Counted from the first letter of the stretch, positions 1,195-58,894 are shown. The stretch: 64,000 nucleotides of DNA from Candidatus Schekmanbacteria bacterium (GCA_016188575.1 JACPHN010000228.1:35961-99960); one strand, 5' to 3'. Program-made: numbers and translations. The notes: generated by a model not told the origin, from the sequence alone.

Positions 1195-1447
1195 GTTGGC
1201 TGTGGAGCTTGAGGCGCTCCCACTATACCGCATTGTGCGGCGATTCACCACCGCGCGGCGGACCGTAAAGAGACTCCCTCGAGCAGGCACGCGCGAAACC
1301 GGTGCCGGCGAATGCCGATAATTAGACTTGGAGGCTGGCCTACGCGACATGGAGGCTCCGAAGGCGGCACGCCGTCGCCTCCGAACGAATGGGTGGGCCG
1401 GCCAGATGGGCCTGATTGGGGGCGGGATGTCGAAAGGAGAAGCCGTC

Positions 1448-4400
1448 ATGACCGGTCGCGCTCGAGCTCGATTGGCAGTGTGTCTTGTAACCGTCGTCGC
1501 GCTGTTCCCGAGGCCGTCAGAGCTCGAAGCTGCGATCTCGTTCGTCGAGGCGATCGCGACACCGCTCACGTTTCCCGACGGCAATGGCGCGACGGGCGTC
1601 GCTACCGCCGATCTCAACGGCGACGGTCTCGCCGACTTGGCGGCGACGGTCAATCTCCGGGGACATGGCTTCGTGGCGGTTTTGCTTGGCGGCGGGGACG
1701 GCACGTTTCGCGGCCCGATGACGTTCGCGGTGCCGCGGCAGGAAAGCGGTGCCGCAGCCTTTGGTTACGGTATCCTGGCGCGAGACTTCGACGGCGATGG
1801 CAAGGCCGATATTCTGGTGGCCTGCTCGGAGCGGCGCGAGCTGCTCTTTTACCGCGGGGATGGCGATGGGACTCTGGCCGATCCGGTCGCGACAGCGGCC
1901 ACCTGCCGCCCGGAGCAAATCCAGGCGACGGACCTCGATGGCGACGGCAAGCTAGACGCTGTCGCCGCGTGCGCGCAAGACGACGGTGTATCGGTTTTCC
2001 TGGGCGCCGGCAGCGGCACGTTCCGGTCCCCTGCAGACTACGCCGTGGGTGACAACCCCCAAGATCTGGCACTCGCCAATGTCGACGGCGCAGGTGGGAT
2101 CGACATCGTTCTTGGAAGCTACGGCGCACAAGCAGTGGAGGTGCTCGTTGGCGACGGCAGCGGGGGCTTCGGGGCACCGATCCGCTCCGGCGCCCGCATG
2201 CAGGTCCTCGGGCTGTACGTCGCCGACTTCACCGGGAACGGCGATCTCGACGCTGTGGTGGCAGGCGAGGGGAGCCGGATGGCGTTACTGCCCGGAAGCG
2301 GGGACGGGACCTTCACGACGCCCGCTGACGGCGACCTGGTGCCGATCGAGTCCTCGCCGCGCCGGCGCTTCAGCGAGAATGCAGCGCCGGACCTCGATGG
2401 GAACGGTGTCCCCGACGTCGTTTTTGGCCACAGCGCCAACTTCCTGACGATCGGCCTGGGAGCGAGCGGCGGAGGCATGACGCGGTCGACCTGGATTCCG
2501 TCTCCTGGCTCGGGCCTTGCCGGCGCGGCATATCGCGACGGCACGTCCACGGAGTCGCTCGTCTTCTCGGATTTCAACGGCGATGGTGCCACCGATGTGG
2601 CGGTGGCGTCGCCGTCGACAAATAGCCGGCGCGGCGGCCTGGCGGTGGTGTTGGGGCTGCCAGCGGCCAAAGGGACGTTTCGGGCGCCGCGCAGCTTCGC
2701 GACGAGTCGCGCCTGGAGCACCAACAACCGCGGCGCCGCACTTGCCGACGCCGATAGCGACGGTCAGCTCGATCTGCTCGCCATCACCGACCCTCTCGAT
2801 TTCCTGCGAAGCAATGGTGACGGCACGCTGGCGGCCGCCACCGAGGCGATCCCCCGCATTTCTGGCGCCGGCGAGCTCTACAATTCGCTGCGGGTCACGG
2901 ACTTTGACGACGACGGCAAGCTCGATGCCGTCTGGCTCGGCGCCGGTGGCGTGCAGGGCGGGCCCGCGCCGCGCGACCTCGTCGCCTACGGCAACGCGGA
3001 CGGCACCTTCGGCAACGTCCAGGCCTACGTTCCATCCAGCCCCGACGACGCTGGTGCCAACGTTGTCGCCATTCCAATCGACGGCGCCGATGCTGCCCCG
3101 GACCTCGCGATCTGGACCCGGAATGGGATCGAGACCTGGCTTTACGGAACGGCAGGTGACCGATCGTTCGGGCTCAGTGGCAGCCCGCTTCCTCTGGGGC
3201 AATTCCCACCCTATCCAGCCTCCGGCTTCACCGCCGCCGACTTTGACGGTGACGGTCGGCCCGACATTGTCGCCCGTTCCTGGGGTGAACCGGACGGGCT
3301 CGTCTTTTGGAAGGGCAAGGGCGATGGCGGCTACGAGACCGGCCAGCTTGTCACGCCTGGCTCAGCCGTTCCGGAGCTTCAGGACCTCGTTGCCGTGGAC
3401 ATCGACGCGGACGGCGCGCTCGACCTCGCGGGGAGTGCGGGCGACGGCCTGTACGTGTTGCTCGGCGCGGGCGATGGCACCTTCGCCGCCCCCCAGACCC
3501 TTACGAGCGGTGTGGCGTCGTCCGGGTTGGTTGCGGCGGACTTCGACTTGGATGGCAAGGCGGATATCGCGGTTGCGCACGCTGCCACCACGGCATCCAA
3601 TGGCTTTTCAGTGCTGGCAGGCAACGGCGATGGCACGTTCGACCCGTGGCGTGGTTACGCGGTTGGCAGCAACAGCGCGCCGTGGGCGGGTGCCGGAGAC
3701 CTCGACGGAAACGAAAAACCCGACGTCGTGGTCGGGCACACGGGTACGAGCTACGATCACTTTACTGTCCTCCTCAACGACTCGGCCCCGCGTGCGGACC
3801 TAGCCGCCGCCGTCGCCGCCAGTCCCGATCCCGTCCAGCTCGGCCAGCGCGTGACCTATACGATCACGATCGGCAACGCCGGTCCCGACGCGGCGACGGC
3901 AGTGGTCCTGACGGACTCCTGGAGTCTCGACGCGCCCTACTGGGCAGCCACCCCGTCGCAGGGCTCATGCACGCCCCCCGCGCGCGGTGCCGGACGGGAA
4001 TGGGGAGGCGGGCCCCTCACCTGCGCTCTCGGCGACCTCGCCGCTGGCGCCCAGGCAAGTGTCATCGTCGAGCTGACCAGCGCGAGGATCCTGGGGACCA
4101 TCTGGAACACGGCTGCCGTGAAGAGCGCGGTGGGTGACCCGAACCTCGCGGACAACGGTGCCGCCGCCAGCGCCACGGCGCAGACCTACGGCGTTCGCAT
4201 TTTCGGCCCGACCATCACCATGGTCGGCGACAACCCCACCTACGTGCTCCGCTACTCGAATTTGTTGGGACAGACGATCGCGTCGGCCGTGCTCGTGTTT
4301 CGCTTGCCGCCGACGCTCGAATACGACACCAGCTCGAGTGGCGGCACCTACCACCGAGCCCGCCACGAGGTTTTCTGGAATCTCGGCGATCTGGCCGCCC

Positions 4401-7225
4401 TCGACAGCGGCGAGGTAGCCGTTCGCGGGAAGGTTCCCTGGGGAATCCCGCCACACACCAAGCAAAGTCTAGGGGCGGCACTGGGCTGGTCGGGCAGCCC
4501 CGCCGGCTCACCTCTCGATGTCGCCCCCTACCTGACGTATGAGGCCCGTACGGAGGTCGCCCGCGCCACGCTTACCAGCGCCGAGGTCGATGCTCTGCTC
4601 GCCGCCGATTCCCGCGCCCAGGCGCTCTTCGCTCACGCTCAGACCCAGGGCTACGAATACTACGATATCGCGACCAGGACGACGGCAAACGACGGCTCGG
4701 AGGTCACCCACCTCTGGCTATTCGACCCCGCCACCCGGATGCCGGCCGCGGTTACCGTGCGGACGGGCCCTGGCCTCACCGGCGCGTCGAGCATCCTCGA
4801 GACATTCGGGACCTCCACCTTCGCCCTGGCCGACACGGGCGGAGCCATGGCGCTCGACATGAACCGCAACAGCTTCCTCGGCCCAACAGGCACATGGGCG
4901 ATGGCGAACAGCCCAAGCTACGGGCAGTGCCTCGGCACCTGTATCGGCAAGCAAGTGCCAATCTGGGTAATCGGCCGCGTGTTCAAGGCCGTGGGCGCGG
5001 CGATGAATAGTTGGACCTGCGCCAAATGCGCTACCGGTGACAAGGGGTCGTGCGCCGGGTGCTTGACGCTCCTCTCCGAGAATGTTCCGTTCCTCGGGGA
5101 AGGAGTCGATATTTCCATGTGCGTGAACGACTGCCTCGAGTGCGTGACGGGAAACCCGGACAAGTGCCACCTCTGCGACAAAGATAAGCGTGGCTGTCGT
5201 CCGGCCAACCTGGTTGAGAAGTACATCATGGGCCAGGACGTGGTCATGTACGGCTACGACTGCATCAACGGCGTCTACGCCTATGGGGAAGAAGTCCAGT
5301 TCTGTCCGCTGTGCACGCACGGCCAGACGTGCAAGGCGGAGGAGTGCAGCGACGTGGCGAGCTGCTGCGACTGCCAGAAAGAGAACTGCGCGCGGCCGCG
5401 GGAGGCGCGGCCTTGTGGCCGTAACGCGGCGGCCCGAGCGCCGGCAGAGCAGTGCGATATCAACCAGGACGAGGTAGACGGCGAGGTCCAGACCGCCCAC
5501 GACCCGAACGCGAAGTCTGGGCCGTCCGGTGACGTGGTGCGCGGGCAGACGCTCAGTTATGTCATCGATTATGAGAACACCGGCTCGGGAACGGCGCAGG
5601 GCGTGTTCGTCAGCGACCAGCTCAGCGCCTATCTCGACGAGAGCTCGCTTGTCATCGAGGGCGGAGGCAGCTACGTGCCGGGGACGCGAAATATCTTCTG
5701 GAACGTCGGCGATCTCGCTCCCGGTGCTGCCGGGCAAGTGCGCTACTCGGTCCAGGTGCGCGACGATGCGGCCATCGGCGGCGTGATCGTCAATGTCGGA
5801 CGGGTGTTCTTCCCAAGCGTTCCCGAGGAGACGACCACGAACGCAGTGGTGTCGACAGTGCGGACGGTCGTGGCGGAACCGCAGCAGGTGCAGGTGGTCG
5901 AAAATACCGCTGTACCGATTACCCTCAGCGGCCGCGATCCGGCCGGCCGGGTGCTGACCTACGCGATCGTCAAGCAGCCAAGCAGCGGCAGCCTGACCGG
6001 CACACCTCCAGACGTGATCTACACGCCGGGAATCGACTACGATGGGCCGGATAGCTTCAGCTTCACTGCCGGCAACGGGCTGACGACAAGTGAGGCCGCG
6101 GCCGTCGCGATCGTTGTGACCCCGTCTTTCTCGGATCAGACGCCGCCGCACGTCGTGCGCGTCGAGCCTGCCGACGGGAGCCAGGGCGTCGCGATCACCG
6201 CCGACGCCCGCGCTGAGGTCGCACGCGTCTGCTTCGACGAGCCGCTTGACCCGCTGACCGTCACGGTCGCCAACGTCCGCCTGAGCTCCAGGGGCGAAAG
6301 CGTCGTCGTGGAGCTCGTTCACGATCAGGTGCAGAGCTGTATCGGATTGGTGCCGGCGGTGGCGCTCGCGAATGACACGACGTACGTTGCGGCTGCCGGA
6401 AAGGACCTGAAGGACACCTCCGGCAACGCCATTGAAAGCGACCGCACCTGGAGCTTCCAAACGGCTGGGCAGGGCAGCGCGAACCCGGAACCGGCGACCG
6501 TTGACTTTTGCCTGGCGGCAGTGGGGACTACTTCGGCGGCGCAGAGCGTAACCATTTCGAACGTCGGCGCCACCGACCTGGCGTTTTCGAGCGCGGCGCT
6601 GGACGGAACGGGGGCCGGGGACTTCGCAATCGTATCCGACGGCTGCAGCTCAGGGCGACTGGTGCCCGGCGGAAACTGCGCCGTCGACATTCAGTTTGCG
6701 CCGCTGTCAGCGGGCGCAAAGTCCGCGACGCTGGAGCTTCTGGCGCCGGATGCTACTGTCCACGCGGCGCTCACCGGCGTCGCAGGCCAGACCGCGTTGC
6801 GCCTTGTTGCCGACTCATACACGGTCAGCGAGGCCGGCGGGAACGTCACGCTGGAGGTCCAGCGCCTGGGAAGCACGAGCGCCGAGCTTTCGGCAAGCTA
6901 CGCAACCGCCGATGAGAGTGCCGTGGCGGGTCAGGACTACGTCGCTGCCGCTGGCACGGTGACGGTGCCGGCCGGTCAGTCGACCGGAACGATGACCGTG
7001 ACACTGCTCGACGACGCTGCCCGCGAGGCGGAAGAAGTCTTCCGTGTGGCTCTTTCCGGTGCCGAGGTTTGCGGCGGGACGGCGACCGCGGCGCGTGTCG
7101 TGATCACGGACGACCTGCCCTTGGTCCGGGTAGGAACCCTCGCCGGGTTGCTAGTCGGCCTCGGCGCCGCGGCACTCGTAGCCGCGGCCGCGCGCCGGCG
7201 GCGGTCCCAACACCGCACGCTCTGA
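1448..7225 (+). CDS. Giant secreted surface/adhesin-like protein (~1,926 aa): signal peptide, FG-GAP/VCBS repeats, two DUF11-like conserved-repeat domains, a Cys-rich insert, Ig-like region, Calx-beta domain and a C-terminal hydrophobic helix plus RRRR tail
   Basis: ATG at 1448 is preceded by an AAGGAG ribosome-binding site, and [20 protein letters not shown] is signal-peptide-like. The N-terminal half has many DxDGDG FG-GAP motifs ([32 protein letters not shown] and others). The Calx-beta-like segment is [20 protein letters not shown]...[31 protein letters not shown]. The last 35 aa are [34 protein letters not shown]. The upstream TTG at 1328 given by the ORF track is rejected as an over-extension. 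Confidence 0.8.
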
Positions 7226-16164: not shown

Positions 16165-17823
16165 TCATTCTTGCTGCCACTGCCGCGACAGCGCCACGAT
16201 TTCCTGGTACGTCAGGATCTCGCGGGTCTTGCGCTCGTCGCACCAACCGAGCAAGCTTGCCATCCGGGAAGCCACCTTGTCGACGGCCGCCAGGCCCTGA
16301 TCCTTGTCACGAAGGAAAAGCTGCGTGCGCCGTTCCATGACGTCCCGAACGGTCTGCGCCAGCTCCAGCTTCACCGCCCAGTCGACCAGGCCGAGCACCT
16401 CGGGCCTTCCCGGCACCAGCGGCTCTCGCAGGCTATCGTCGCTAGCGAGCAGGCGCGCGATTTCCACCCCCCGCATCCCGTAGCGTTCGATGAGATGGCG
16501 GGCGACCGAGCGTGGGACGGTGCCCATGGAGGCTTCTACCGCCTGCGCGGCAATGGTGTCAAAATCGTCGTCGTCCGGCCAACCCACGGCCCCCGGCAGA
16601 GGCCGGCGGCCGGTGTTGGCGTCCTTGACGTCCTCGGGCATCTTCCCGAGAATGGCCATCATTTCGAGCGCTCGGGTGACCAGCTCGGCGGCCATGCGCC
16701 GGTAGGTCGTCAGCTTGCCGCCGGCGATCGTGATGAGGCCATCCGGGTCGACGGTGATCTCGTGCTCGCGCGACACGGACGACGCGGAAACGCCGTCGGC
16801 TCCGATGAGCGGGCGGACACCGCTCCACGTCGCAATCACGTCGCCGGGCGCCAGCTTCGAGTCGGGGAAGTAGGCGTTCATCGCATTCAGAAGGTAGTCC
16901 ACGTCGGCTCGGGTCGCCGAGACCTTGCCAGGGTCGCCCGAGAAGTCGGTATCCGTGGTGCCGACGATGGTTCGATCGCCCCACGGAATCGCGAACAGGA
17001 CTCGGTCGTCGTGCGGGTGGTTGCAGACGATGGCATGGCGGACCGGCAAGCGCTCTGCCTCAAGCACCAGATGGACGCCCTTGGTAGGCCGCAGCAGCGC
17101 CTCACCCCCGAGCCCCAGTGCCCGCGTCCGATCGACCCACGGTCCCGTGGCGTTGATGACCACCGTGGCATTGACGTCGACCTCGTCGTCCCCGAGCACG
17201 TCGCGCACGCGCGCGCCGACGACTCGACCCACACTGTCGCGCAACAGACCCGTCACCCGCGCATAGGTCGCCACGGCGGCACCCTGTGAACGGGCATCGA
17301 GAACGGTCTCGAGCGTCAGCCGCGCATCATCGGTCTGGCAGTCGTAGTAGAGGGGAGCTCCCTTCAGCTCGGTGCGGCCAAGCGGCGGGACTTCCTTTGC
17401 CACCTCGTCCGGGGTGAGGATCCGGTGTCGTTTGGGAGACCGAAACAGAGACAGCCCATCGTACAACCACAGACCGGCCTGCAGGACCCGCATGCCGAAC
17501 CGCGAATGTGCGTACACCGGGAAGATGAATCCGAGCGGGCGCACCAGATGCGGCGCGATATTCATGAGCGTGCGCCGCTCGCTCACGGCCTCGAACACGA
17601 GCGAGAATTCGCGTTGCTCGAGGTACCGCAGGCCGCCGTGCACCAGCTTCGAGCTGCGCGACGACGTGCCGTAGGCGATGTCTTGCGCCTCGACGAGCGC
17701 GACTTTCAGACCGCGCCGCGCCGCATCCCGCGCCGCGCCACACCCCGTGATCCCACCGCCGATGACGAGCAGGTCGTACCGGTCTCCCGCGAACTGTGAC
17801 AATCGCCCCGCTGCTAAACCCAT
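16165..17823 (-). CDS. glpD: FAD-dependent glycerol-3-phosphate dehydrogenase
   Basis: The N-terminal FAD-binding motif is DLLVIGGGITGCGAARDAARRGLKVALVE. Its 552-aa length and conserved blocks are typical of GlpD/GlpA. Confidence 0.85.
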   Translation of the reverse strand: MGLAAGRLSQFAGDRYDLLVIGGGITGCGAARDAARRGLKVALVEAQDIAYGTSSRSSKLVHGGLRYLEQREFSLVFEAVSERRTLMNIAPHLVRPLGFIFPVYAHSRFGMRVLQAGLWLYDGLSLFRSPKRHRILTPDEVAKEVPPLGRTELKGAPLYYDCQTDDARLTLETVLDARSQGAAVATYARVTGLLRDSVGRVVGARVRDVLGDDEVDVNATVVINATGPWVDRTRALGLGGEALLRPTKGVHLVLEAERLPVRHAIVCNHPHDDRVLFAIPWGDRTIVGTTDTDFSGDPGKVSATRADVDYLLNAMNAYFPDSKLAPGDVIATWSGVRPLIGADGVSASSVSREHEITVDPDGLITIAGGKLTTYRRMAAELVTRALEMMAILGKMPEDVKDANTGRRPLPGAVGWPDDDDFDTIAAQAVEASMGTVPRSVARHLIERYGMRGVEIARLLASDDSLREPLVPGRPEVLGLVDWAVKLELAQTVRDVMERRTQLFLRDKDQGLAAVDKVASRMASLLGWCDERKTREILTYQEIVALSRQWQQE

Positions 17824-18311
17824 CCTTGGATAGTCCTTCCTGCAGATACCGTGATGCGCTGTTGCCGCTCGTGTACACCCTATTCGAGACCGCCGTCGCC
17901 GCTTTCGCGCAATCGTCGTCTACCACAATGCAACGCGGGGTTCTCTCGGGAGCTTCTCAAAGACGAAACTGTACCGCGCCCGCCGTTCTCGCTGCAACCC
18001 GCAGCTCCCGGCGCCTCCGAGCGCGCTTCAGAACAGGCGCGCCAGGAGCTCCCGCACCTGTCCCCGCCGGAGCAACGCGATGGCCACCCGGATTCTCCTT
18101 CCGGTACTGGCGACGCCCCGGGCAACTGCCAGAATCCCGGGCGCCGCATGGCGAATCCACGCCCCGCACAGCTCGCCAATCCATGGCGGCCCATCGCCAT
18201 CGCGGTCAGACCTTTCCACCCGCGCCAGCCGGCGCACCAGGACGATGAGCGCCAGATCTCTTGCCGTGCAGGAGCCGAGATCTTCCGTCGAGCGGTGTCG
18301 CTTCCGCACGC

Positions 18312-20387
18312 TCACCGCCGCCTCACCAGATCAACAAGGCGCAGCAACGCCTGCAGCGGCACTCCGCCATACTTGCTCAGTGCCCCATACCGCCAGTGCG
18401 CGCCGCGAACGTGGCGAAGCACCTCGCGCAAGTGCCATATCGGCGGGCCATGAGGCACGGTCGCCAGATCCATCAGATCGCTGCTTCCGAAGTCCTCGCA
18501 GTGGTTGAGGCGCGTGAGCATGGCGACTTCTTCCCGGCGAGGATAGGCGATCGCCCGTTCGAGCATGGCGACAACGAACGGTTTGAGATCCGCGAACCCG
18601 TACCCCGTCAGCAGGCAGGCACGAGCGAAAACCGGGACAAAGGCGAGCACGCCCTGTTGAATCGCACCGATCATGGCGTTGCTCAGGCGCTCGCTACCAC
18701 GCTCGGGAGCGTCCTCGGCTTTCAAGATCGGCACTACCCCGCCCCCGTTGTCGGCGCGGCGATATCCAATTGTCGTGGCCTCCGGTGAGCGCGCGCTCTC
18801 TTCGAACAGCTCTTCGTAGTGCACGCAAACTCTCTCCACCGGCTCCCCGCGCCGAGCGTCGAATAGCAGACCTTCGACCTCGTTGCCGCTGCCGAACCGA
18901 TAGGGAATACCACCTGAGAAGGCGAGATAATACCCCTGGAGGCGTGGGCAGTCGGCGCGCTGCCGAAACGTTCGCCAGAGCGCCTGCTGAATCGTTCCGT
19001 TCCAACCGATGTCCACCAGAGCGACTGCGGACTGACCGAAGAATCCCTCTTGCCCGAGATACTCGGCCAGAAGCTCCCGCGGCGCTGCCGCCTGCTGCTG
19101 CACCCGTCTCTGCACCCGATCATCGCGAAGAAAGGCGTCAAATCTGACATCTCTGGGATCATCGAGTGGCACCGTCAGGTCGGCCATGCCGTGCTCGGCG
19201 GCCAGCCCGGCGAGCAGCGCGTCGGGGAGCCCAAACGCCTTGAACACGCTTTGCAGGCCCCGTTGCCGCGGATTGTTGAAAGGCACGATCGCATCCTCAT
19301 AGGACAGGCCGAACGCGGCCAGGGCTGTGCTCGCGGTCTGCCGAGACACGTACAGGTAGGAGGTCTCCGGTGGTGCACTGGCCGCGAGCTTCGGCCAGAG
19401 CTCCGTGAAAACCCGATAGGGGAGATACCCATCCCGCGATGGGAAAAACAGCTTCGCGACGGGGGCGCGCTGCAGTCGCTCGATCACGCCAAGGGTGAAG
19501 GCGCAATACACGGGTCCGAGCACCTCCCAACCATAGCGCGCGTAGGCATTGTCCGGGCGGGCGCCGTCCGGCTCGTTCTCGGCGATCGACAGACACACCT
19601 CCAGCAGATGCCGCCCGCGCCAGAATCGGCGAGGCCGCCCGAGCTCGCCATAGAAGGCCAGGCGATCTCGCCGGCGAATGTCCGGAGGGTCGCGGAAAAG
19701 GTGCGCGCGGATCCCGAGTCGAGCTGGAGCGCGGGCGTCCGCCTCCGGATTGTCGCCGACGTGCGCGATCTCGCTCGGCGCCACGCCCAGGTCCGCAACG
19801 ATTCTCCAGAACAGCCGCCCCGAATACTTGCCTGCTCCGTGGTCGCCGGAAACATAGAAGTGATCAAACAGGTGCTCGATTCCCTTGTCACGGAAGATCG
19901 CGCGCAGGAGAGCTTCGCCGAGATACATGTCGGAGGTGGCGATGATCGTCTTGCCCCGTTCGCGAAGCCGCTCGATCACGGACCGTATTCCTGGGCGGAC
20001 CGCGCACACTGCGAGCTCCAGGCTCAGCTCGGTCCGTTGGATCAGCTCTTCAACGGGCCGGTGGCCTGCGGTGACGAGTTGCCGAGCCCACACGTAGGCA
20101 AGCTCGTCGAGGCGGAACTCCGGATCTCGTCCGGCGTTCTTGGCCAGCTCGCGCAAGGAGCGCTCGAGCACGTCGCGCCTGGCTGCCTGCTCGGCGCCTT
20201 TGGCCGCGCCCCCAACCGCGGCGGTCACGACCTCGGCGACGCGGCGCTTGACGGCGGCCGGGGGCTCCACGTGGCGGATGAGCACGGTATCGAAGATGTC
20301 AAAGGAGATGACCCGCACGGACCGCGGCAGTCGCGATCCGAACCGCGCGACCGCGGCGACGCCAGAAGCTCGAAGTGAGAGCGCCAT
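18312..20387 (-). CDS. HAD-like hydrolase-fold N-terminal domain protein with a large C-terminal domain of unknown function (691 aa)
   Basis: VISFDIFDTVLIRH is motif-I-like, and ...KTIIATSD... and VGDNPEADARAP are further HAD-like motifs. It is the last gene of a four-gene minus-strand operon, with a 31-nt gap after the SDR gene. Confidence 0.65.
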   Translation of the reverse strand: MALSLRASGVAAVARFGSRLPRSVRVISFDIFDTVLIRHVEPPAAVKRRVAEVVTAAVGGAAKGAEQAARRDVLERSLRELAKNAGRDPEFRLDELAYVWARQLVTAGHRPVEELIQRTELSLELAVCAVRPGIRSVIERLRERGKTIIATSDMYLGEALLRAIFRDKGIEHLFDHFYVSGDHGAGKYSGRLFWRIVADLGVAPSEIAHVGDNPEADARAPARLGIRAHLFRDPPDIRRRDRLAFYGELGRPRRFWRGRHLLEVCLSIAENEPDGARPDNAYARYGWEVLGPVYCAFTLGVIERLQRAPVAKLFFPSRDGYLPYRVFTELWPKLAASAPPETSYLYVSRQTASTALAAFGLSYEDAIVPFNNPRQRGLQSVFKAFGLPDALLAGLAAEHGMADLTVPLDDPRDVRFDAFLRDDRVQRRVQQQAAAPRELLAEYLGQEGFFGQSAVALVDIGWNGTIQQALWRTFRQRADCPRLQGYYLAFSGGIPYRFGSGNEVEGLLFDARRGEPVERVCVHYEELFEESARSPEATTIGYRRADNGGGVVPILKAEDAPERGSERLSNAMIGAIQQGVLAFVPVFARACLLTGYGFADLKPFVVAMLERAIAYPRREEVAMLTRLNHCEDFGSSDLMDLATVPHGPPIWHLREVLRHVRGAHWRYGALSKYGGVPLQALLRLVDLVRRR

Positions 20388-20418
20388 CGGCTCGGTATCC
20401 CCGGGCGCGGCCGGCCGC

Positions 20419-21477
20419 CTACGGCTGAATGCCGCGCTCGCGCATCCATGCGAGGCTTCGGCGCATGCCCTCCGCGAGCGACACTTTCGGCTCGTAGCCG
20501 AGCTCCCGCCGCGCTCGCTCCACGGAGCAGGCGATGTTCTTGTTCATCTCGGACAGCACGTGGAGCTCCGGCGAGTAAAAGCCAGCGTTTTGAAGGATCT
20601 TGTCCGCGAGGTACGCTGCGGCGCTGGCGGCGCCCGGCAGGCGCACGCGGCGATGCTTGCACTGAATCCCGAAATCATGTTCCATGACGCCCTCGATCGT
20701 GTCCACGATTTCGTTCATCGTGTAGGGGTTGCGGTCAGCAATCCAGTAGGTTCGGCCGGACGCCTTCTCGACACGCTCGCCCAGCAATAATCCCTGGCAA
20801 ATGTTGTCCACGTACGCCATGGAGCGGCGGTTTTCTCCATCGCCGACGATGGGCACCCGGCCCGTCTTGATCATCGTGAAGAAGCGCGTCTGCCGGGCCG
20901 GCTGGTGTGGGCCGTAGAACCATGGCGGCCGGATGATGACCGCTTCGAGCTCACCCGAGGCACCGGCGCGGTTCACAATGTCTTCAGCGCGCCGCTTGCT
21001 GAGCCCGTAACCCATGTAAGGGTTGTAGGGAGAACCTTCGTCGAAGACGTGCCGGTTAGAGGCGTTGGTGCCGATGGGTGAGTTCGAGGACACGTGGACA
21101 AGACGCCGCACGCCTGCGCGCGCGGCAGCAGTTACCACGTTTTCTGTCCCTCGGACATTGACCTCGAAAAGCTCTTGGGTGCGGCGGCGCGGGTGAATCA
21201 CGCCGGCCGTATGAAACAGGGTCCCGCCCGCTGCCGCGGCGAAAAAATCGCGCAACGACGAGGGATTCCTGACGTCACCTGGGTGGATGTGCACGGCTCC
21301 ACCGAGTTGCTCGAGCTCGGACGTGTCGGAGGAAGGCAGGACCAGGCAGCGGACCGTGCGCGGTGGCTGCGGAGCCGGAAAGCGCGCGTCGTCTGCAAGT
21401 CCGCTCACCAGCGCGCGCACCAGACGAATGCCCAGCCAGCCGTTTGCGCCGGTCACCAAGGCTACGGGCTCGGTCAT
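20419..21477 (-). CDS. NAD-dependent epimerase/dehydratase (extended SDR)
   Basis: VALVTGANGWLGIRL is the Rossmann motif and YGLSK is the catalytic YxxxK. The start MTEPV has a GGAGG site 6 nt upstream, and its ATG overlaps the GMC gene stop as ATGA. Confidence 0.85.
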   Translation of the reverse strand: MTEPVALVTGANGWLGIRLVRALVSGLADDARFPAPQPPRTVRCLVLPSSDTSELEQLGGAVHIHPGDVRNPSSLRDFFAAAAGGTLFHTAGVIHPRRRTQELFEVNVRGTENVVTAAARAGVRRLVHVSSNSPIGTNASNRHVFDEGSPYNPYMGYGLSKRRAEDIVNRAGASGELEAVIIRPPWFYGPHQPARQTRFFTMIKTGRVPIVGDGENRRSMAYVDNICQGLLLGERVEKASGRTYWIADRNPYTMNEIVDTIEGVMEHDFGIQCKHRRVRLPGAASAAAYLADKILQNAGFYSPELHVLSEMNKNIACSVERARRELGYEPKVSLAEGMRRSLAWMRERGIQP

Positions 21478-22934
21478 GGGTTTTCCTCCAAGAAGCGAAC
21501 GACGTTGCGTCTGGCGAGTGCCATCACGGCTCCCTGTGGGTTCACACCCGGTGAGTCCGGCAGCATGCTCGCGTCGTTGATGTACAGATTCTCGAACCCG
21601 CGCACCTTGCCGAAGGAATTCGCCGCGCAGCGGTCCTCGCGCTCGCCGATGGGGCAAGAGGAAAACGCGTGCACCGTTCCGAGGCTCAGACTCGCGGGCA
21701 CAAGCCGCTCATCCAACCACCGCACGGCCTCGACCTCCGAGCGGATCGCCGGCAGGCCCTGCACGCAAGGGAGCACCTCGATCGCGCCCGCGGCGAGAAG
21801 CACCTCGGACAGCCGCGCCAACCCGCGCGACAGGTGGAGGATGTCGATGTCGGAAAGGTCATAGCGCAAATTTGCGCCATCCGGGTCAACTCGAGAAGGT
21901 CGCACCATTCCCGCCCCAGTTCCTTTCACCGCCACATAATAGCTGGCCATGCAATCCGCATGGCGCATGAGGTCGCGGTTCGCGAGCCAGTTGTCGCTGA
22001 GCAGCATGGCCAGGTGACCAGTGGAGAAGAAGGCGCCGCCGAGCGAGATTTCGGGCCAGAACTCCTTGATTTGAATGAGCGGCACGGGCGACACGCGCCC
22101 CCCGACCGGCTCCGGAAAGCGGGCAGCCACTTTGAGCATTGGATGCACCCGCAGCGTGTCGCCGATGTGGAGCTTGACGCCGCTGCGGCGCAGCAGTGCG
22201 GGTGTTTCTGTAGGGCCGCAGCACACAAATACGTGCTCGCCGAGGATGCGCACGAGCTCCACGACTCCGTCAGCGCGGCTAAATCGCGCGAGAACTCCGT
22301 CGACCCGTGCGCCGCGGCGCAGGAGATGGGTCACGCGGCAGTTGGAGATGAGCCTCGCGCCAGCCGCCCGGGCGCGCGCCAGGACTGTCGAGCGCACGCC
22401 GGCGGTCGGACCGCTCGCATCCCCCTGCGCCGGGTCCCGCGGGTCCGGTCGCGTCAGCGGAGCGCGCGGCACCTCCTGGTAGGACCACCCCATTGCGGCG
22501 ATCCCCCGCGCCAGCGCCGCGGTGCTGCCGGGCCACGGGCGCTTGCTGAGGCCGACGCCGAGCGCTGCTTCCGCCCACTCGTAATGCGGCTCGAGCTCCT
22601 GCGGGCTGGCACCGTCGAGCTCGTAGCGCCCCTTCCAGCTCAACAGGACTTCCCTCGGGACGCGATGCCAAAAGCCGCTGTTGATTTCAGAGCTGCCCCC
22701 GACGCAGCAGCCTTCCACGTAGCCGATTGGAACGCGCCCCACAATCGGGGTCATGCCTCGCCGCCGGTACATGGCACCCATCATCTTGGGGCCATGCTGA
22801 TCAAAGGCTCCCGCGTCCAGGTCGTCTCCTTCTTCGACGACGACCACGTCGCGGCCGCTCGCAGCGAGCTCATGAGCCGTAATCGCTCCGCCGGCCCCCG
22901 ACCCGACGATCACCGCGAAAGGAATTGGCGTCAC
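21474..22934 (-). CDS. GMC-family FAD-dependent oxidoreductase
   Basis: FAVIVGSGAGGAITAHELA is an FAD Rossmann motif and NLYINDASMLP is the C-terminal GMC signature. The likely GTG start overlaps the upstream gene stop as GTGA. Confidence 0.8.
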   Translation of the reverse strand: MTPIPFAVIVGSGAGGAITAHELAASGRDVVVVEEGDDLDAGAFDQHGPKMMGAMYRRRGMTPIVGRVPIGYVEGCCVGGSSEINSGFWHRVPREVLLSWKGRYELDGASPQELEPHYEWAEAALGVGLSKRPWPGSTAALARGIAAMGWSYQEVPRAPLTRPDPRDPAQGDASGPTAGVRSTVLARARAAGARLISNCRVTHLLRRGARVDGVLARFSRADGVVELVRILGEHVFVCCGPTETPALLRRSGVKLHIGDTLRVHPMLKVAARFPEPVGGRVSPVPLIQIKEFWPEISLGGAFFSTGHLAMLLSDNWLANRDLMRHADCMASYYVAVKGTGAGMVRPSRVDPDGANLRYDLSDIDILHLSRGLARLSEVLLAAGAIEVLPCVQGLPAIRSEVEAVRWLDERLVPASLSLGTVHAFSSCPIGEREDRCAANSFGKVRGFENLYINDASMLPDSPGVNPQGAVMALARRNVVRFLEENP

Positions 22935-24433
22935 GACACGGCCCCCGTCACCACCGCGGTCCCCCGAGCGGTCGCCGGTGACGTGCCGTCGGCCAGCCGC
23001 CGCTGCACCTCGGGGTGATCATAGTAGGCCAGATACGCCACCGAGCGGATCGGTCTAAAGAGCTGTCTGGCAAGGCCAACGGGGCCAAACGCCCAAAGCT
23101 CGACTATGTCGCGCCGCACCCCGCTCGAAAGCTGCGCGAAGGGGGCGCGGGCGTGCACATAGGACACCGCGCAAAAGCACCAAATACCACCGCGAAACGC
23201 TACCCGCAGCCGCATTGGCAAGGCCTGTATCTGGCTTGCGCTGAATTCGAAAACGTCGGCGAGAATCTGCTCTCGCGCTTCGCTACCAACGCCGAGCTCC
23301 GCCGGATCGACGAGCGCCTCGATGATCGCGCGCAGGACTACATCTGCTCGTCGCGTCGAGAGGCGTCGGCGGGCGCTGCCGAGGACTTTCATGGGCGATT
23401 CCGGCTCGACCTCGATCGTTGGCGCTCGGCGACCCCCGTACGCGGCGACCAGGGTCGCGCCGACGCCGATTCCGTACCACACCATGACGAGCACACCCCA
23501 GATCGTAATCGGAATATAGAAGGTAAGATGGATGATGACCGCGCAGCCGAACGCCTTGGCCTGCTCCACGCCAAACAGCATCAGCGCCTGCATGGCAATA
23601 TAATGAAAAGTTCCGAAAAAGCCGGGGCTGGCAGGAATCAGAATACCCAAGTTGGTGACGGACATGACGAGCAGCGCCCACGCGGGGTGCGCGCCAAAGC
23701 CGAACGAGACCATTACAAAATAGAACATCGCGACTTCGAGTAGCCACACCGCGGTGCTCAGCACCCAGATTCGCCAGATGTTGTGCAGGCTGCGCAAGTA
23801 TGCCACGCCCTGAACCGCGGCAGTGGTGAACGACACGAAGCGATCTCGCCACTCGGGCTGCAGCCGCTGCGAGATGCCGAGCGCTTTCCCGAGCACATAC
23901 TGCGGAGCAACCACCGCCAGCGCTACGAACGCCGTCGCTACCCCGAACAGCACCGAGACCACCCAGATCGAGACATGCACCCAGGTTTGCTCCGGTGCAT
24001 ACGTGGCCGAGATGAGGAAAAACAGCAGAATCACCAGGCCGTCCAGGAGCCGTTCGACGAAGGTGATCGCAAGGGCGGTCGCCAGCGGCATGCCAGTTCT
24101 TTCGGTGAGCATGCTGGCGCGCACGAGCTCGCCGAGACGTGCCGGTAAAACGTTGTTGCCGGCGTAGCCGATGACGACGATGTTTGTGGCGGTACTGTTG
24201 GTGACTTGTGCCTGGCGACTTACCAGCAGGCGGCATCGCATGCCCCGCACGACGTATCCTGCCAGGCATGCGAGCGCTGCCAGCTCCAGCCACGGATGCG
24301 CGTTGACGTGCGAAAAAGCCTCGGCGACCTTGCTCAGGTCGAGACGGCGCGCTGCCAGGAAAAGGAAAAAGAAACTCAGGCCAATGCCGCCGAAAACAAG
24401 CGCAGCGTTGGCTCTCTGGATGGGTCTGGACAT
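22931..24433 (-). CDS. Polytopic inner-membrane protein (at least 8 predicted TM helices), possibly of the flippase-like / lysylphosphatidylglycerol-synthase-TM family, with a ~170-aa soluble C-terminal extension
   Basis: Hydrophobicity pattern read by eye. I placed the start at MSRPIQRANAALVFGGIGLSFFF (cat read at 24431-24433). It is the first gene of a four-gene operon. The family assignment is tentative. Confidence 0.6.
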   Translation of the reverse strand: MSRPIQRANAALVFGGIGLSFFFLFLAARRLDLSKVAEAFSHVNAHPWLELAALACLAGYVVRGMRCRLLVSRQAQVTNSTATNIVVIGYAGNNVLPARLGELVRASMLTERTGMPLATALAITFVERLLDGLVILLFFLISATYAPEQTWVHVSIWVVSVLFGVATAFVALAVVAPQYVLGKALGISQRLQPEWRDRFVSFTTAAVQGVAYLRSLHNIWRIWVLSTAVWLLEVAMFYFVMVSFGFGAHPAWALLVMSVTNLGILIPASPGFFGTFHYIAMQALMLFGVEQAKAFGCAVIIHLTFYIPITIWGVLVMVWYGIGVGATLVAAYGGRRAPTIEVEPESPMKVLGSARRRLSTRRADVVLRAIIEALVDPAELGVGSEAREQILADVFEFSASQIQALPMRLRVAFRGGIWCFCAVSYVHARAPFAQLSSGVRRDIVELWAFGPVGLARQLFRPIRSVAYLAYYDHPEVQRRLADGTSPATARGTAVVTGAVS

Positions 24434-24616
24434 TACTGGGGGATTCCTGTGCGAAAGTGAGGAGAACGGTAGCAAGGCGCTGGATCCGTGTCAAGTCGGG
24501 CGCGCCGCGCGCGCTCACAGGAGGCTCTTGAAAGCGTCGAGACGGGCCGCTAGACTCCGCGCGGCGCACCCGCGCTCTACCACTATCTGCTCTTCGGATT
24601 TTCTGGAGATGGGCTC

Positions 24617-25645
24617 GTGCACCACCTGATCACCGGCGGCTCCGGCTTCCTTGGAAACCTCATCGCCCGGCGCCTCCATGAGCGCGGCGAGCAGGTCCGT
24701 ATTCTGGACATCTGGGAGGACAAGTCTCGCCCAGCCGGCATCGAGCTCGTTCGCTGCGATATCCGCAATCGCGAGGGCGTGGCCAAGGCGATGCGGGGCA
24801 TCGATATCGTCCACCATAATGTGGCCCTCGTGCCGCTTACAAAATCAGGCTCTTCATTCTGGGATGTAAACGTCGAGGGCAGCCGCATTGCTGCCGAAGA
24901 GGCAGTGAAAGCTGGCGTCAAGAGCTTCGTGCAGATGAGCTCAAGCGCCCTCTTCGGCTGCCCGGAGCACTGCCCCATCACCAATGAGACCGCACCCAAA
25001 CCGGTAGAAATTTACGGGCGCGCGAAGCTTGCCGGCGAGCTCGCTGTGCGCGAGGTCTGCGAGCGAGCAGCACTGCCGCTGGTCGTGATCCGCCCGCGAA
25101 CGATCCTCGGCGAGGGGCGCTTCGGCATTTTTCAGATTCTCTTCGAGTGGATCCGCGAGGGAAGAGACGTTTACGTTATTGGCAATGGCGATATTCTTTT
25201 CCAGTTCGTGCATGCGCACGACCTGATGGACGCCTACATGCTTGCCCTCGACGCTGGACGATCGGGTATCTACAACGTCGGAACGGATCGCTTCGGCACC
25301 TTGCGTGAGGGGCTCGCGCACCTGATCGAGCACGCGGGCACCACGTCGCGGGTGCGCGGCCTTCCAGAGTCTCTGACAATAAACACCCTCAGAGTGCTTG
25401 ACTGGTTGCGGCTCAGCCCCCTTGCGCCCTGGCACTACCTGACGTATCACAAAGCGTTTTACTTTGACGTTTCCCCGCTGCTTGGTCTTGGATGGAAACC
25501 CCGGTACTCCAACGACGAGATGTTTCGGGAGTGTTACGACTGGTATCTGAAGAACAGCGACTTGGCCCGCGCTCCGAAGGATGCCTCGGCCCATCGTAGT
25601 CTTGTAAAGCAGCGTGTTCTGAAAATCGTGAAGTGGTTTTCGTGA
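24617..25645 (+). CDS. NAD-dependent epimerase/dehydratase (SDR), second copy, divergent from the membrane-protein operon
   Basis: HHLITGGSGFLGNLIARRL is the N-terminal motif and YGRAK is the YxxxK. The start is GTG, with GGAG 8 nt upstream. Confidence 0.8.
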   Translation: MHHLITGGSGFLGNLIARRLHERGEQVRILDIWEDKSRPAGIELVRCDIRNREGVAKAMRGIDIVHHNVALVPLTKSGSSFWDVNVEGSRIAAEEAVKAGVKSFVQMSSSALFGCPEHCPITNETAPKPVEIYGRAKLAGELAVREVCERAALPLVVIRPRTILGEGRFGIFQILFEWIREGRDVYVIGNGDILFQFVHAHDLMDAYMLALDAGRSGIYNVGTDRFGTLREGLAHLIEHAGTTSRVRGLPESLTINTLRVLDWLRLSPLAPWHYLTYHKAFYFDVSPLLGLGWKPRYSNDEMFRECYDWYLKNSDLARAPKDASAHRSLVKQRVLKIVKWFS

Positions 25646-25720
25646 TCTGGCGTATGCCTTCGTCAAGATGAGCTACCGAAAACGCTTCGTTTCATCGTCT
25701 GTCAGCCGCAGACTCAGAGC

Positions 25721-26293
25721 TTAGTTCTTCTTCTTGTTCTTCTTCTTCTTGTTCGATTTCTGCTCCTTTTTTTCTTTTCCCTTTTTGTTCCCCTTGTCTC
25801 GCGGTTCCTTTTTTTTCTTTGTCTTGTTCTTCTTTCCTGGAGCCATCGCCTTTTCCTCCTGTTGAATCGACGCAATGCGCTGGGGTGCAGGTGCGGCGCT
25901 GACCTCGGTAGTTATCGGCACCGGCTGCGCCGGCAGATGCTGCTCGGCCGGTGGCGAGGGGGGGATAGGCACAACCGCGCTCACCGGCTCGGTAATGCCC
26001 GATGCCGCGAGAGCCGCATCCCTGAGCTGAGACATCCGCGCAAAACCGACGCCCGGGACTCCCCGCAGGTCATCGTCGGCGGCATTGGCCAAGTCCTGAA
26101 TGGTCATGATCCCCCGCTCGCTCAACACCGCGGCGGTCTTTGCTCCAATGCCCTTTATGGCGGTCAGCGCCGGTGGTTCAATCGTCACGCTGAAGCTCCT
26201 TGTCTGGCGGTTGCCGATAGTCCGGAGACGGTCTTGCTCACCACTGGGTTTGGCCGTGAGGTCGCCAACCCTTGCTGCGACGGGCAAAAGCAT
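25721..26293 (-). CDS. Helix-hairpin-helix DNA-binding domain protein with a Pro/Ala-rich linker and a histone-H1-like poly-lysine C-terminal tail (~190 aa)
   Basis: Two HhH motifs are LTAIKGIGAKTAAVL and LRGVPGVGFARMSQL. The tail is APGKKNKTKKKKEPRDKGNKKGKEKKEQKSNKKKKNKKKN. The coding DNA at 25721-25850 is conspicuously AT-rich (AAG/AAA codons). The start is probably MLLPVAAR, but that is uncertain. Confidence 0.6.
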   Translation of the reverse strand: MLLPVAARVGDLTAKPSGEQDRLRTIGNRQTRSFSVTIEPPALTAIKGIGAKTAAVLSERGIMTIQDLANAADDDLRGVPGVGFARMSQLRDAALAASGITEPVSAVVPIPPSPPAEQHLPAQPVPITTEVSAAPAPQRIASIQQEEKAMAPGKKNKTKKKKEPRDKGNKKGKEKKEQKSNKKKKNKKKN

Positions 26294-26465
26294 ACTTCTT
26301 TTGTCGGCATGCGTAAAGACCGGCCCCGTCTTTGGGGCGCATTTGGTCTCGCTGGAGACTTCGCCCGAGCGTGCCAGGCACCTCTCAACGCTGCTGCAAG
26401 CGCTGTGGTAGTACTGTCGAAATAGTGTTGAAGCTGGCCGCGAAACGCATCGGGAGGTCTTGACC

Positions 26466-27221
26466 ATGACGAGGGCGAGCTGTGTGTTGGGGCGAGCTCT
26501 GTTTCTACTCGCGGTTACCATCGGCGCGGCTTCCGCGGAGAGCGAGCGCGTTCGGGTTCATCTGGTAGACGGGACGGAGAATCTCTGCCACTTGTTGGCA
26601 ATCACGCCCCACGCAATCTCTCTGCTTGAGGCGGGGACGGAGCGGCAGTTCGCGTTGGCCAGCGTGGAGTGGATCGACTTTGGCAATCACGCCGCTGAAA
26701 TGGAGCTGAGCGACAAGGCGAGGGGCGCAGATCCGCACGCCGTGGTGATGACCTCAGGGGCAGCCTACAATGGGGCGATCGTCGGTCTGTCCGACGAGAA
26801 CGTGGAGCTGCGGACGGCGGGCGGCCAAAGAAAGCTGATTTCGGTAGCCCGTGTGGCGCGACTCTATTTTCAGCGACCCGAGTGGTATCCCGAGACAAGT
26901 CGGCTGCACGTGGCGCTGAGTCGGCTGCTGGACGCGCTTCACGAGCTGCGCCGCGCGCTCGATAGTAGCCAGGGAGGCCCCGCGCTCGCGCACACCGCGC
27001 GGGAGTTGCTCGACGCCGCCGAGGCGTTGCAAGCCCAAGCTCACGAGGGGGCTTCGGTGCATGACCTCCGAGCCGGTCTCACCACGCTTGCGGATCGATA
27101 CGACGCGCTACAAGAGGATTTCGAGGCATCCGCGGCGCTCCGGCCGCAGGGCGCCGTGGCGCGGAGCTGGCACCGCCTCGACGCCGCCATGGCCGAGACG
27201 CGTCGGGCCGTGCCGCGCTAG
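26466..27221 (+). CDS. Secreted hypothetical protein (~251 aa) with a signal peptide
   Basis: MTRASCVLGRALFLLAVTIGAASAESE is signal-peptide-like, and a GGGAGG site sits 8 nt upstream of the ATG. I recognised no domain. Confidence 0.55.
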   Translation: MTRASCVLGRALFLLAVTIGAASAESERVRVHLVDGTENLCHLLAITPHAISLLEAGTERQFALASVEWIDFGNHAAEMELSDKARGADPHAVVMTSGAAYNGAIVGLSDENVELRTAGGQRKLISVARVARLYFQRPEWYPETSRLHVALSRLLDALHELRRALDSSQGGPALAHTARELLDAAEALQAQAHEGASVHDLRAGLTTLADRYDALQEDFEASAALRPQGAVARSWHRLDAAMAETRRAVPR

Positions 27222-58649: not shown

Positions 58650-58894
58650 TTTTGGGCTCCCGCGCAAGATACCAGGATGCGAAAGGTATTTTTGGCGGTC
58701 CACGCTGCATGAATCGTACCAGGTGCGGGGGGGCGCCCGCACTGCCGGCGGAAGCGCCACGCGGCGATATTCTGGCGCCTCCATGGCGGGCCTCCGAACG
58801 CCGAAAGAGAGAAACGCCTGCAAACTATCGCCAAGTTCTTGCGTTTCACCGGTGCCCGGCAGGCTAGTTTGCCGGCCCGTCTTGGCCGTGTAAA

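Follow-up and report, generated by a model that had tools for sequence, protein, structure and literature searches.

A divergent member of a bacterial helix-hairpin-helix/poly-lysine protein family with a possible link to polyphosphate granules

A 64,000-nucleotide (nt) stretch of DNA from a 'Candidatus Schekmanbacteria' metagenome-assembled genome (MAG), referred to here as the window, carries on its minus strand a small gene, HYV63_30455, that is annotated by NCBI as a hypothetical protein. The product joins helix-hairpin-helix (HhH) motifs to a long lysine-rich tail, and the locus raises the question of what a protein with one folded HhH head and one poly-lysine tail might do in a bacterial cell. 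A preliminary description had likened the tail to that of histone H1 and suggested a nucleoid-associated or DNA-compacting protein. Our analysis of the protein, of its relatives and of the genes that surround them places it, by profile score and architecture, as a divergent member of a widespread and uncharacterized bacterial family, which we call HhH-K. In relatives the family gene repeatedly lies beside genes of polyphosphate (polyP) and phosphate biology, and we tentatively propose that these proteins may organize polyP granules on the chromosome.

The gene at 25721-26188 on the minus strand is real and encodes a small HhH/poly-lysine protein, although its start differs from the annotated one. 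The open frame extends over 266 codons (25721-26521), and the NCBI call occupies 25721-26293 of it, giving 190 aa from a start reading MLLP at 26293. A GTG codon at 26188-26186 is instead the likely start, because a Shine-Dalgarno-like AAGGAG (26196-26201, minus strand) read from the sequence lies upstream with a spacer of 7 nt, and because the aligned N-termini of 28 homologues, which fall 3-5 residues ahead of the motif LTxIxGIG, agree with the product of this codon. The proposed coding sequence then consists of 155 codons and a TAA stop, and its 155-aa product would begin MTIEPPALTAIKGIG. Guanine-plus-cytosine content at third codon positions (GC3) is 0.67-0.68 upstream of the GTG, below the value of the HhH domain. 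The 35-111 upstream codons are matched by none of the homologues and are carried by the self-match of the protein (P0001) alone. NCBI has probably placed the start 35 codons too far upstream, and the GTG probably fits better than any of the three starts offered previously (MLLP, M19 and M1). The upstream part of the open frame (26189-26521, minus strand), which includes the 35 NCBI codons at 26189-26293 and lacks homologue cover, is probably untranslated, and 26189-26459 is probably a divergent intergenic or promoter region shared with an unknown gene that begins at 26460 on the plus strand. In a promoter scan, no sigma-70-like site turned up close to the gene; the one terminator-like site is located on the plus strand, upstream of the start.

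Within the 155-aa protein, three parts follow one another in a single uninterrupted frame. The (HhH)2 domain (residues 7-62; 26003-26170, minus strand), supported by Pfam HHH_5, AlphaFold2 and Foldseek, contains motif 1, IKGIGAKTAAVL, at 26123-26158 and motif 2, VPGVGFARMSQL, at 26024-26059, both on the minus strand, so that the two HhH motifs first noticed are indeed present. Next comes a Pro/Ala/Gln-rich linker (residues 63-118; 25835-26002, minus strand) that is predicted to be disordered and is slightly acidic; its 52-aa core (residues 67-118) has a Pro fraction of 0.23, an Ala fraction of 0.17 and a net charge of -3. The poly-lysine tail, defined by composition, takes up residues 119-155 (25724-25834, minus strand) and coincides with the AT-rich island. 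This tail, KKNKTKKKKEPRDKGNKKGKEKKEQKSNKKKKNKKKN, has 37 aa rather than the 40 initially given, with 21 Lys, 5 Asn and a net charge of +18, and the net charge of the HhH head is -1. Across all six frames of the window, it is the only stretch with at least 10 Lys in 30 aa.

The composition of the tail does not bear out the comparison with histone H1. Its residues are Lys (0.57), Asn (0.14), Glu (0.08) and Pro (0.03, a single residue), with Ala at 0.00; it is thus K/N/E/G-rich and without a repeat unit, and not K/A/P-rich. A Pfam scan at E ≤ 1 returned HhH-type families only and no H1/H5 winged-helix globular domain, and the AlphaFold2 model agrees. What the protein shares with eukaryotic H1 is a strongly basic, disordered, Lys-rich region that could in principle condense DNA, while its structured domain is (HhH)2. 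Bacterial H1-like proteins, such as Hc1 of Chlamydia and BpH1 of Bordetella, also have a basic, Lys-rich disordered region, and the same differences apply to them.

The AT-rich island reported at the tail is present: GC content is 0.38-0.42 at 25701-25860, compared with 0.64 over the whole window. GC is low here because Lys and Asn are encoded by AAR and AAY codons, whose third position still follows the bias of the genome: GC content at the first, second and third codon positions of the tail is 0.30, 0.23 and 0.65, and GC3 in the HhH and linker parts is 0.73. The island is the footprint of Lys/Asn codons in a GC-rich genome and not foreign DNA. The sole other low-GC stretch of the window, at 57880-58300 (0.38-0.42), lies inside an 889-aa open reading frame (ORF) at 56154-58823 on the minus strand that is Asn/Asp/Ile-rich at this place and carries repeated 'FGDFDGDG'-type motifs towards its C-terminus.

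The fold of the head is well supported. Pfam HHH_5 (PF14520) matches residues 7-58 over profile positions 3-54 of 57 with 42.9 bits (E 6.8e-11), which passes the gathering cutoff of 27. The AlphaFold2 model, built with the family alignment, has four helices and a predicted local distance difference test score (pLDDT) of 92-95 over residues 11-60; residues 63-155 are without secondary structure at a pLDDT of 53-66 (about 56-66 for the linker). Foldseek matches this model to the AR2 domain of NusA (template modeling score 0.82, target-normalized) and to the N-terminal domains of RAD51/RadA, with a root-mean-square deviation of 1.0-2.5 Å over 55-65 residues for matches to the (HhH)2 domain. In sequence, weak matches at E 0.02-0.9 were obtained to NusA, the RNA polymerase alpha C-terminal domain (alpha-CTD), RadA and the N-terminus of haloarchaeal L32e. 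These E-values indicate a common fold and not orthology. NusA AR2, the alpha-CTD and the RAD51/RadA N-terminal domain have the same fold as the HhH-K head, but they sit in large enzymes or transcription factors, whereas the HhH-K head stands alone with a poly-lysine tail.

Several more specific assignments were rejected. DUF4332 (PF14229), which had been put forward for comparison, matches over only 33 residues and, at 14.5 bits, stays below its cutoff of 23.2. The phasin PhaH model (NCBIfam NF045508) reaches 13.6 bits against 250 and matches the HhH region only; the HhH region is N-terminal in our protein, which has no phasin domain. Haloarchaeal L32e (NF009401) gives 21.3 bits against 239, and the corresponding PDB chain 9l94_Q (E = 0.02) aligns with HhH and low-complexity sequence only. 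Models for RadA, UvrC, NusA and Pol IV likewise match the generic HhH region only, far under their cutoffs. By sequence, the window protein falls in Pfam HHH_5 and in the unnamed family defined below.

The L32e likeness raises the possibility of an RNA- or ribosome-associated basic protein, or of some other unrelated role in which the tail would bind RNA or anionic membrane lipids. Besides the weak resemblance to the N-terminal HhH extension of L32e, one JGI cluster member is labeled 'transcription termination factor NusA'. These matches lie far under their cutoffs and reflect the generic HhH fold only, and ribosomal or RNA genes are not among the recurrent neighbors in the clustered family loci. 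The lipid variant draws on the position of the window gene beside an operon with an LPG_synthase_TM gene and on a weaker family member (L010), which also adjoins an LPG_synthase_TM gene; no similarity is detectable between the two LPG_synthase_TM proteins. We regard a role of this kind as very unlikely.

When the 190-aa form was used in a word-indexed homologue search, the protein itself was the one match. An exhaustive HMMER search of 1.84 billion cluster representatives gave 139 matches, about 28 of which, 130-175 aa long, can be aligned over their full length in one piece and all have the same three parts; the nearest homologues are about 40% identical, and there is no close relative. A profile search added 58 proteins, one of them, from a gammaproteobacterial MAG, labeled by NCBI merely as 'helix-hairpin-helix domain-containing protein'. 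We also built by hand a degenerate DNA pattern from the conserved positions G-[IV]-G-x3-A-x6-G-x7-A-x10-P-G-[IFV]-x3-[RS]-A-x6-A. Checked on known loci, it recovered 9 of 14 true matches with no false ones in about 220 kb, and scanned over one genome per GTDB species it yielded at least 120 loci. About 85 of these, among the loci listed, encode a small protein with HhH and Lys tail, from at least six phyla or classes.

The phylogenetic distribution, a check proposed at the outset, is broad: the loci listed fall in Proteobacteria, Acidobacteriota, Desulfobacterota, Myxococcota and Verrucomicrobiota. Gammaproteobacterial hosts are Chromatiaceae, Methylococcales, Lysobacterales and Thiosymbion. 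In the Alphaproteobacteria there are cultured Leisingera, Phaeobacter, Pseudophaeobacter, Ruegeria, Histidinibacterium and Heliomarina, together with Hyphomicrobiales and Rhodospirillales. Other listed hosts include Acidobacteriota, Verrucomicrobiota, Desulfobacterota (Desulfosarcina variabilis, with a complete genome), Myxococcota and Acidimicrobiales. The remaining pattern matches have other architectures (proteins of ~700 aa in ANME-1, and proteins of 400-450 aa with a C-terminal HhH) and served as controls. The ~700-aa proteins of ANME-1/Methanophagales (L016, L032, L035, L040, L042, L046, L048 and others) end in (HhH)2, reading VSIRGVGRVIARGL...VPGVGxKRAKK, and are probably helicases.

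We defined the family by an (HhH)2 domain within ~10 residues of the N-terminus, a length of 100-250 aa, at least 30% Lys in the C-terminal 35-37 residues and a disordered linker before them. Its members share the order N-terminal (HhH)2, disordered linker and poly-lysine tail, with lengths of 99-252 aa (median 150), a median linker of 52 aa and a mean Lys fraction of 0.52 in the tail. The window protein fits the family in length, domain position, tail Lys fraction (0.57) and linker core (52 aa). On a profile of 32 phosphate-linked members from which it was excluded, it scores 52.5 bits; family-like proteins score 44-89 bits (median 73) on the same profile, compared with a median of 25.6 for other HhH proteins. 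It also keeps the conserved residues G13, G15, L22, G26, A34, G46 and R51.

Could the frame be spurious or decaying, with a tail that is a by-product of an A-rich low-complexity insertion? The lack of a close homologue is compatible with this view, and purine-rich runs are error-prone. In several MAG homologues (L057, L081, L113, P0149 and P0186), the tail turns from Lys-rich to Arg-rich or nonsense, and these switches are consistent with frameshift errors in the purine-rich poly-lysine runs; genes with such frameshifted tails would escape composition filters. In the window gene, by comparison, the frame is intact, the Shine-Dalgarno sequence is strong and GC3 is kept in the tail, while the domain model is confident and homologues from different phyla retain the three-part architecture. 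Since about 100 homologues share it, the tail cannot be put down to a frameshift artifact. Two findings that had been named in advance as grounds for abandoning the protein, a tail in a different frame from the HhH region and tail-less homologues of unrelated function, did not appear: the frame is single and the homologues keep the tail. A spurious frame is hardly credible.

Gene neighborhoods of relatives provide the functional lead. Neighboring ORFs were clustered all-against-all over 96 loci and their identities then checked by Pfam; the counts that follow are among the loci listed. The partners confirmed by Pfam are CHAD (187-209 bits), PPK1 (all four domains), PPK2, a ParA-like ATPase (AAA_31/CbiA), Na_Pi_cotrans, PHO4 (PiT) and PhoU_div (DUF47). 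PPK1 and PPK2 make and use polyP. Over 95 family loci, tblastn detected CNNM at 15, Na/Pi at 13, CHAD and PPK1 at 11 each, ParA-like at 9, PPK2 at 7, PiT at 6 and PhoU_div at 5. Four further loci (L026, L057, L081 and L113), which were first classed as controls, are members with short, frameshifted or Arg-rich tails, and with these included polyP or phosphate genes are neighbors at 42 of 99 family loci and at 0 of 35 controls (Fisher p = 2.5e-7). PPK1 alone is present in 11 of 99 eight-kb loci, for which random placement in a 4-Mb genome gives a binomial p of ~2e-16. After dereplication at 65% HhH identity, 24 of 58 lineages are positive.

Many of these associations are tight. HhH-K is followed by CHAD after 7-17 nt in four loci (L037, L072, L092, L108) and by PPK1 after 7-22 nt in two (L025, L064); CHAD, ParA, HhH-K and PPK1 all lie on one strand in L064, and the order HhH-K, PhoU_div, PiT is seen in L066, L112, L052 and L094. 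In Acidobacteriota, Myxococcota and Methylococcales, CHAD or PPK1 lies on the same strand as the family gene at a distance of 7-22 nt. Since partners and orientations vary across phyla, the association points to functional coupling and not to inherited synteny. In a gammaproteobacterial clade (L001-L009 and L130; for example, 6731-10952 of L001), two CNNM-CBS-CorC genes, whose products are Mg2+ transporters, come after the family gene without exception, and at most loci the next gene encodes a conserved protein of ~406 aa with faint ATP-cone/Zeta_toxin/AAA matches. Na/Pi-PhoU, PhoU, PstS-like or PhoX genes are nearby in this clade, and its upstream flank is variable.

CHAD, a ParA-like gene and HhH-K are contiguous in 13 loci (L013, L037, L064, L068, L072, L090, L092, L104, L131, L026, L057, L081 and L113) that span Acidobacteriota, Gammaproteobacteria, Desulfobacterota and Myxococcota. 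Tight clusters of ppk1, CHAD, ParA-like and HhH-K genes occupy 2773-7685 of L064, 3761-8866 of L013, 3067-8000 of L037, 2276-7300 of L104 and 1203-3995 of L092, in MAGs of Methylococcales, Acidobacteriota, Thermodesulfobacteriota and Myxococcales, and in a further metagenomic locus the family gene lies between ppk1 and a CHAD gene that is followed by a ParA-like gene. This cluster looks like a candidate polyP-granule positioning module.

One possible reading of these clusters is that HhH-K serves as a ParA-type cargo adaptor on CHAD-coated polyP granules, where it would stimulate the ParA-like ATPase in the manner of McdB; the window copy would then be an orphan or act with a distant ParA. McdB is disordered and highly charged. 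The basic peptides of known ParA partners are short, however, and the charged region of HhH-K is far longer. No ParA-stimulating N-terminal peptide was seen, the charged region being C-terminal, and most listed family loci lack an adjacent ParA, as does the neighborhood of the window gene. A ppk-parA-CHAD cluster was described earlier from Acidithiobacillus, with no HhH-K gene (PMC10892726), and McdB is the cargo-linking partner that stimulates ATP hydrolysis by McdA in carboxysome positioning (PMC13081873). McdB resembles HhH-K in being small, and HhH-K has a ParA-like ATPase and a CHAD cargo-binder beside it in the 13 loci, but the two are not homologous. We consider a cargo adaptor of this type quite unlikely.

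Our best explanation, to which we give slightly less than an even chance, is that HhH-K proteins are two-module polyanion binders that would tether or organize polyP granules on the chromosome. One module would bind the granules and the other the nucleoid or a granule protein, with the flexible Pro/Ala linker (~55 aa) joining the folded (HhH)2 head to the disordered tail of charge +18. The tail may bind polyP and the HhH head DNA; alternatively, the tail may bind DNA and the head a protein partner, an option that is considered because NusA AR2 and the alpha-CTD are protein-interaction modules. Published work also speaks for the proposal. CHAD domains bind polyP and localize to granules (PMC6537752), polyP granules are Mg2+-rich (PMC11894788), and polyP is reported to interact with lysine-rich protein regions (PMC13511156, PMC13510580). 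The K-rich tail of AlgP is needed for even spacing of polyP granules in P. aeruginosa, probably via nucleoid tethering (PMC9239181). Among the papers that our literature searches covered, none links an HhH protein with polyP granules. The predicted granule association derives from the genomic context of relatives. We infer binding to polyP and DNA, the allocation of partners to modules and an equal job for the orphan copy in the window; for that copy, function is tentatively assigned through family membership (divergent homology and shared architecture).

A number of observations weigh against this proposal. First, more than half of the listed family loci have no phosphate-gene neighbor, and in Rhodobacteraceae the gene lies between seryl-tRNA-synthetase-like and desaturase-like genes, as named from reading of their sequences. 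Second, the window itself offers no such context: a tblastn search for polyP and phosphate genes over the full 64 kb came up empty, Pfam found none among most of the predicted genes (about 7.8-50.6 kb), and the neighbors in the window (LPG_synthase_TM, two epimerases, a GMC oxidoreductase, a HAD hydrolase, the 253-aa unknown and a TPR/zinc-ribbon protein) recur at none of the family loci. Third, the score of the window protein is at the 7th percentile of the family range, and the protein deviates at V47, where the G-[FI]-G motif has F or I, and at M52, where A follows the conserved R. Finally, because NusA AR2 and the alpha-CTD are modules for protein interaction, the HhH domain need not be a DNA binder. 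A weak tblastn match to the middle of a PPK1 in the window, at 17733-18014 on the plus strand (29% over 94 aa, E 8e-4), was set aside as probably due to chance, since the ORF that overlaps it, at 17851-18450, has no Pfam support.

An alternative, suggested earlier, is a general nucleoid-associated, DNA-compacting protein. Head and tail alike would be non-specific binders that bridge or condense DNA, and nothing would tie the protein specifically to polyP in this organism. HhH is a classic non-specific binder of the DNA backbone and the HHH_5 cutoff is exceeded; the tail carries its +18 charge; the window gene stands alone, with its own Shine-Dalgarno sequence and no functional neighbors; and many family loci lack phosphate genes nearby. 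The K-rich tails of AlgP, PhaF and PhaM bind DNA (PMC9239181, PMC13052382). Such a role would nevertheless leave unexplained the 24 of 58 lineages in which the gene lies beside PPK1, PPK2, CHAD or phosphate transporters, often at 7-22 nt on the same strand, and the tail is not K/A/P-rich in the way of H1-like tails. Non-specific binding of DNA or other polyanions is a plausible part of the earlier suggestion, while the context of relatives points to polyP and phosphate biology and not to general compaction; we regard compaction as such as possible but doubtful. The two roles are not mutually exclusive, as AlgP both binds DNA and is bound to polyP granules.

Among the closest functional parallels to the proposed granule tether is AlgP of P. 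aeruginosa, a histone-H1-like protein of polyP granules (PMC9239181, PMC11894788). Both proteins have a structured N-terminal module and a long, disordered, K-rich C-terminal tail, and AlgP is a proposed tether between polyP granules and nucleoid, while HhH-K is tied to polyP genes genomically. No sequence similarity was found between them: the AlgP N-terminus is a predicted coiled coil instead of (HhH)2, and its tail consists of K/A/P-rich KPAA repeats (PMC9239181), in contrast to the K/N/E/G-rich, Ala-free tail of the window protein. The role of AlgP has been shown experimentally, whereas HhH-K is known here from sequence and genomic context. PhaF, PhaM and PhaH follow the same logic of a storage-granule module combined with a non-specific DNA module, which is an HhH domain in the Caulobacter phasin PhaH and a K-rich H1-like tail in PhaF and PhaM (PMC13052382). 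Their cargo is polyhydroxybutyrate or polyhydroxyalkanoate, as opposed to putative polyP for HhH-K, and in PhaH the HhH domain is C-terminal, after the phasin domain. We propose, by analogy, that HhH-K may work like AlgP, PhaF and PhaM without belonging to their families.

The gene in the window is monocistronic, convergent with an NAD-epimerase gene at 24617-25645 and divergent from the gene for the 253-aa protein. An apparent operon at 18312-24475 on the minus strand encodes a HAD hydrolase, an NAD-epimerase, a GMC oxidoreductase and an LPG_synthase_TM-family protein, and looks like one for lipid or glycolipid modification. Two very long ORFs on the plus strand, at 1328-7225 (1965 aa) and 51545-56098 (1517 aa), have coding-like GC3. 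Neither an RNA family (Rfam) nor a tRNA (ARAGORN) was detected in the window.

The placement and spacing of polyP granules in bacteria is an open question outside Pseudomonas; for Caulobacter, E. coli and cyanobacteria, a 2026 study and reviews describe the proteins that place granules as unidentified (PMC13052382, PMC13081873). A family found across several phyla, repeatedly beside ppk1, ppk2, CHAD and a ParA-like ATPase, is a concrete candidate for this task. In a bolder version, which we hold to be unlikely, HhH-K would be the missing widespread organizer of polyP granules and would form, with the CHAD phosin and the ParA-like ATPase, which often have ppk1 beside them, a nucleoid-based positioning system like McdAB of carboxysomes. 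In such a system polyP would be the target of the tail, possibly through coacervation, and DNA or the ATPase that of the HhH domain; the window gene would be a stand-alone member in a candidate-phylum bacterium. For annotation, the locus illustrates that an AT-rich island in a GC-rich genome can be just Lys codons; in several MAG homologues, purine-rich runs probably give frameshifted tails. If the proposed tether holds, the design that pairs a granule-binding module with a basic DNA-binding module would extend to a new, non-homologous fold. Members in cultured marine Rhodobacteraceae (Leisingera, Phaeobacter and Ruegeria) and in Desulfosarcina variabilis may make experiments on the family feasible.

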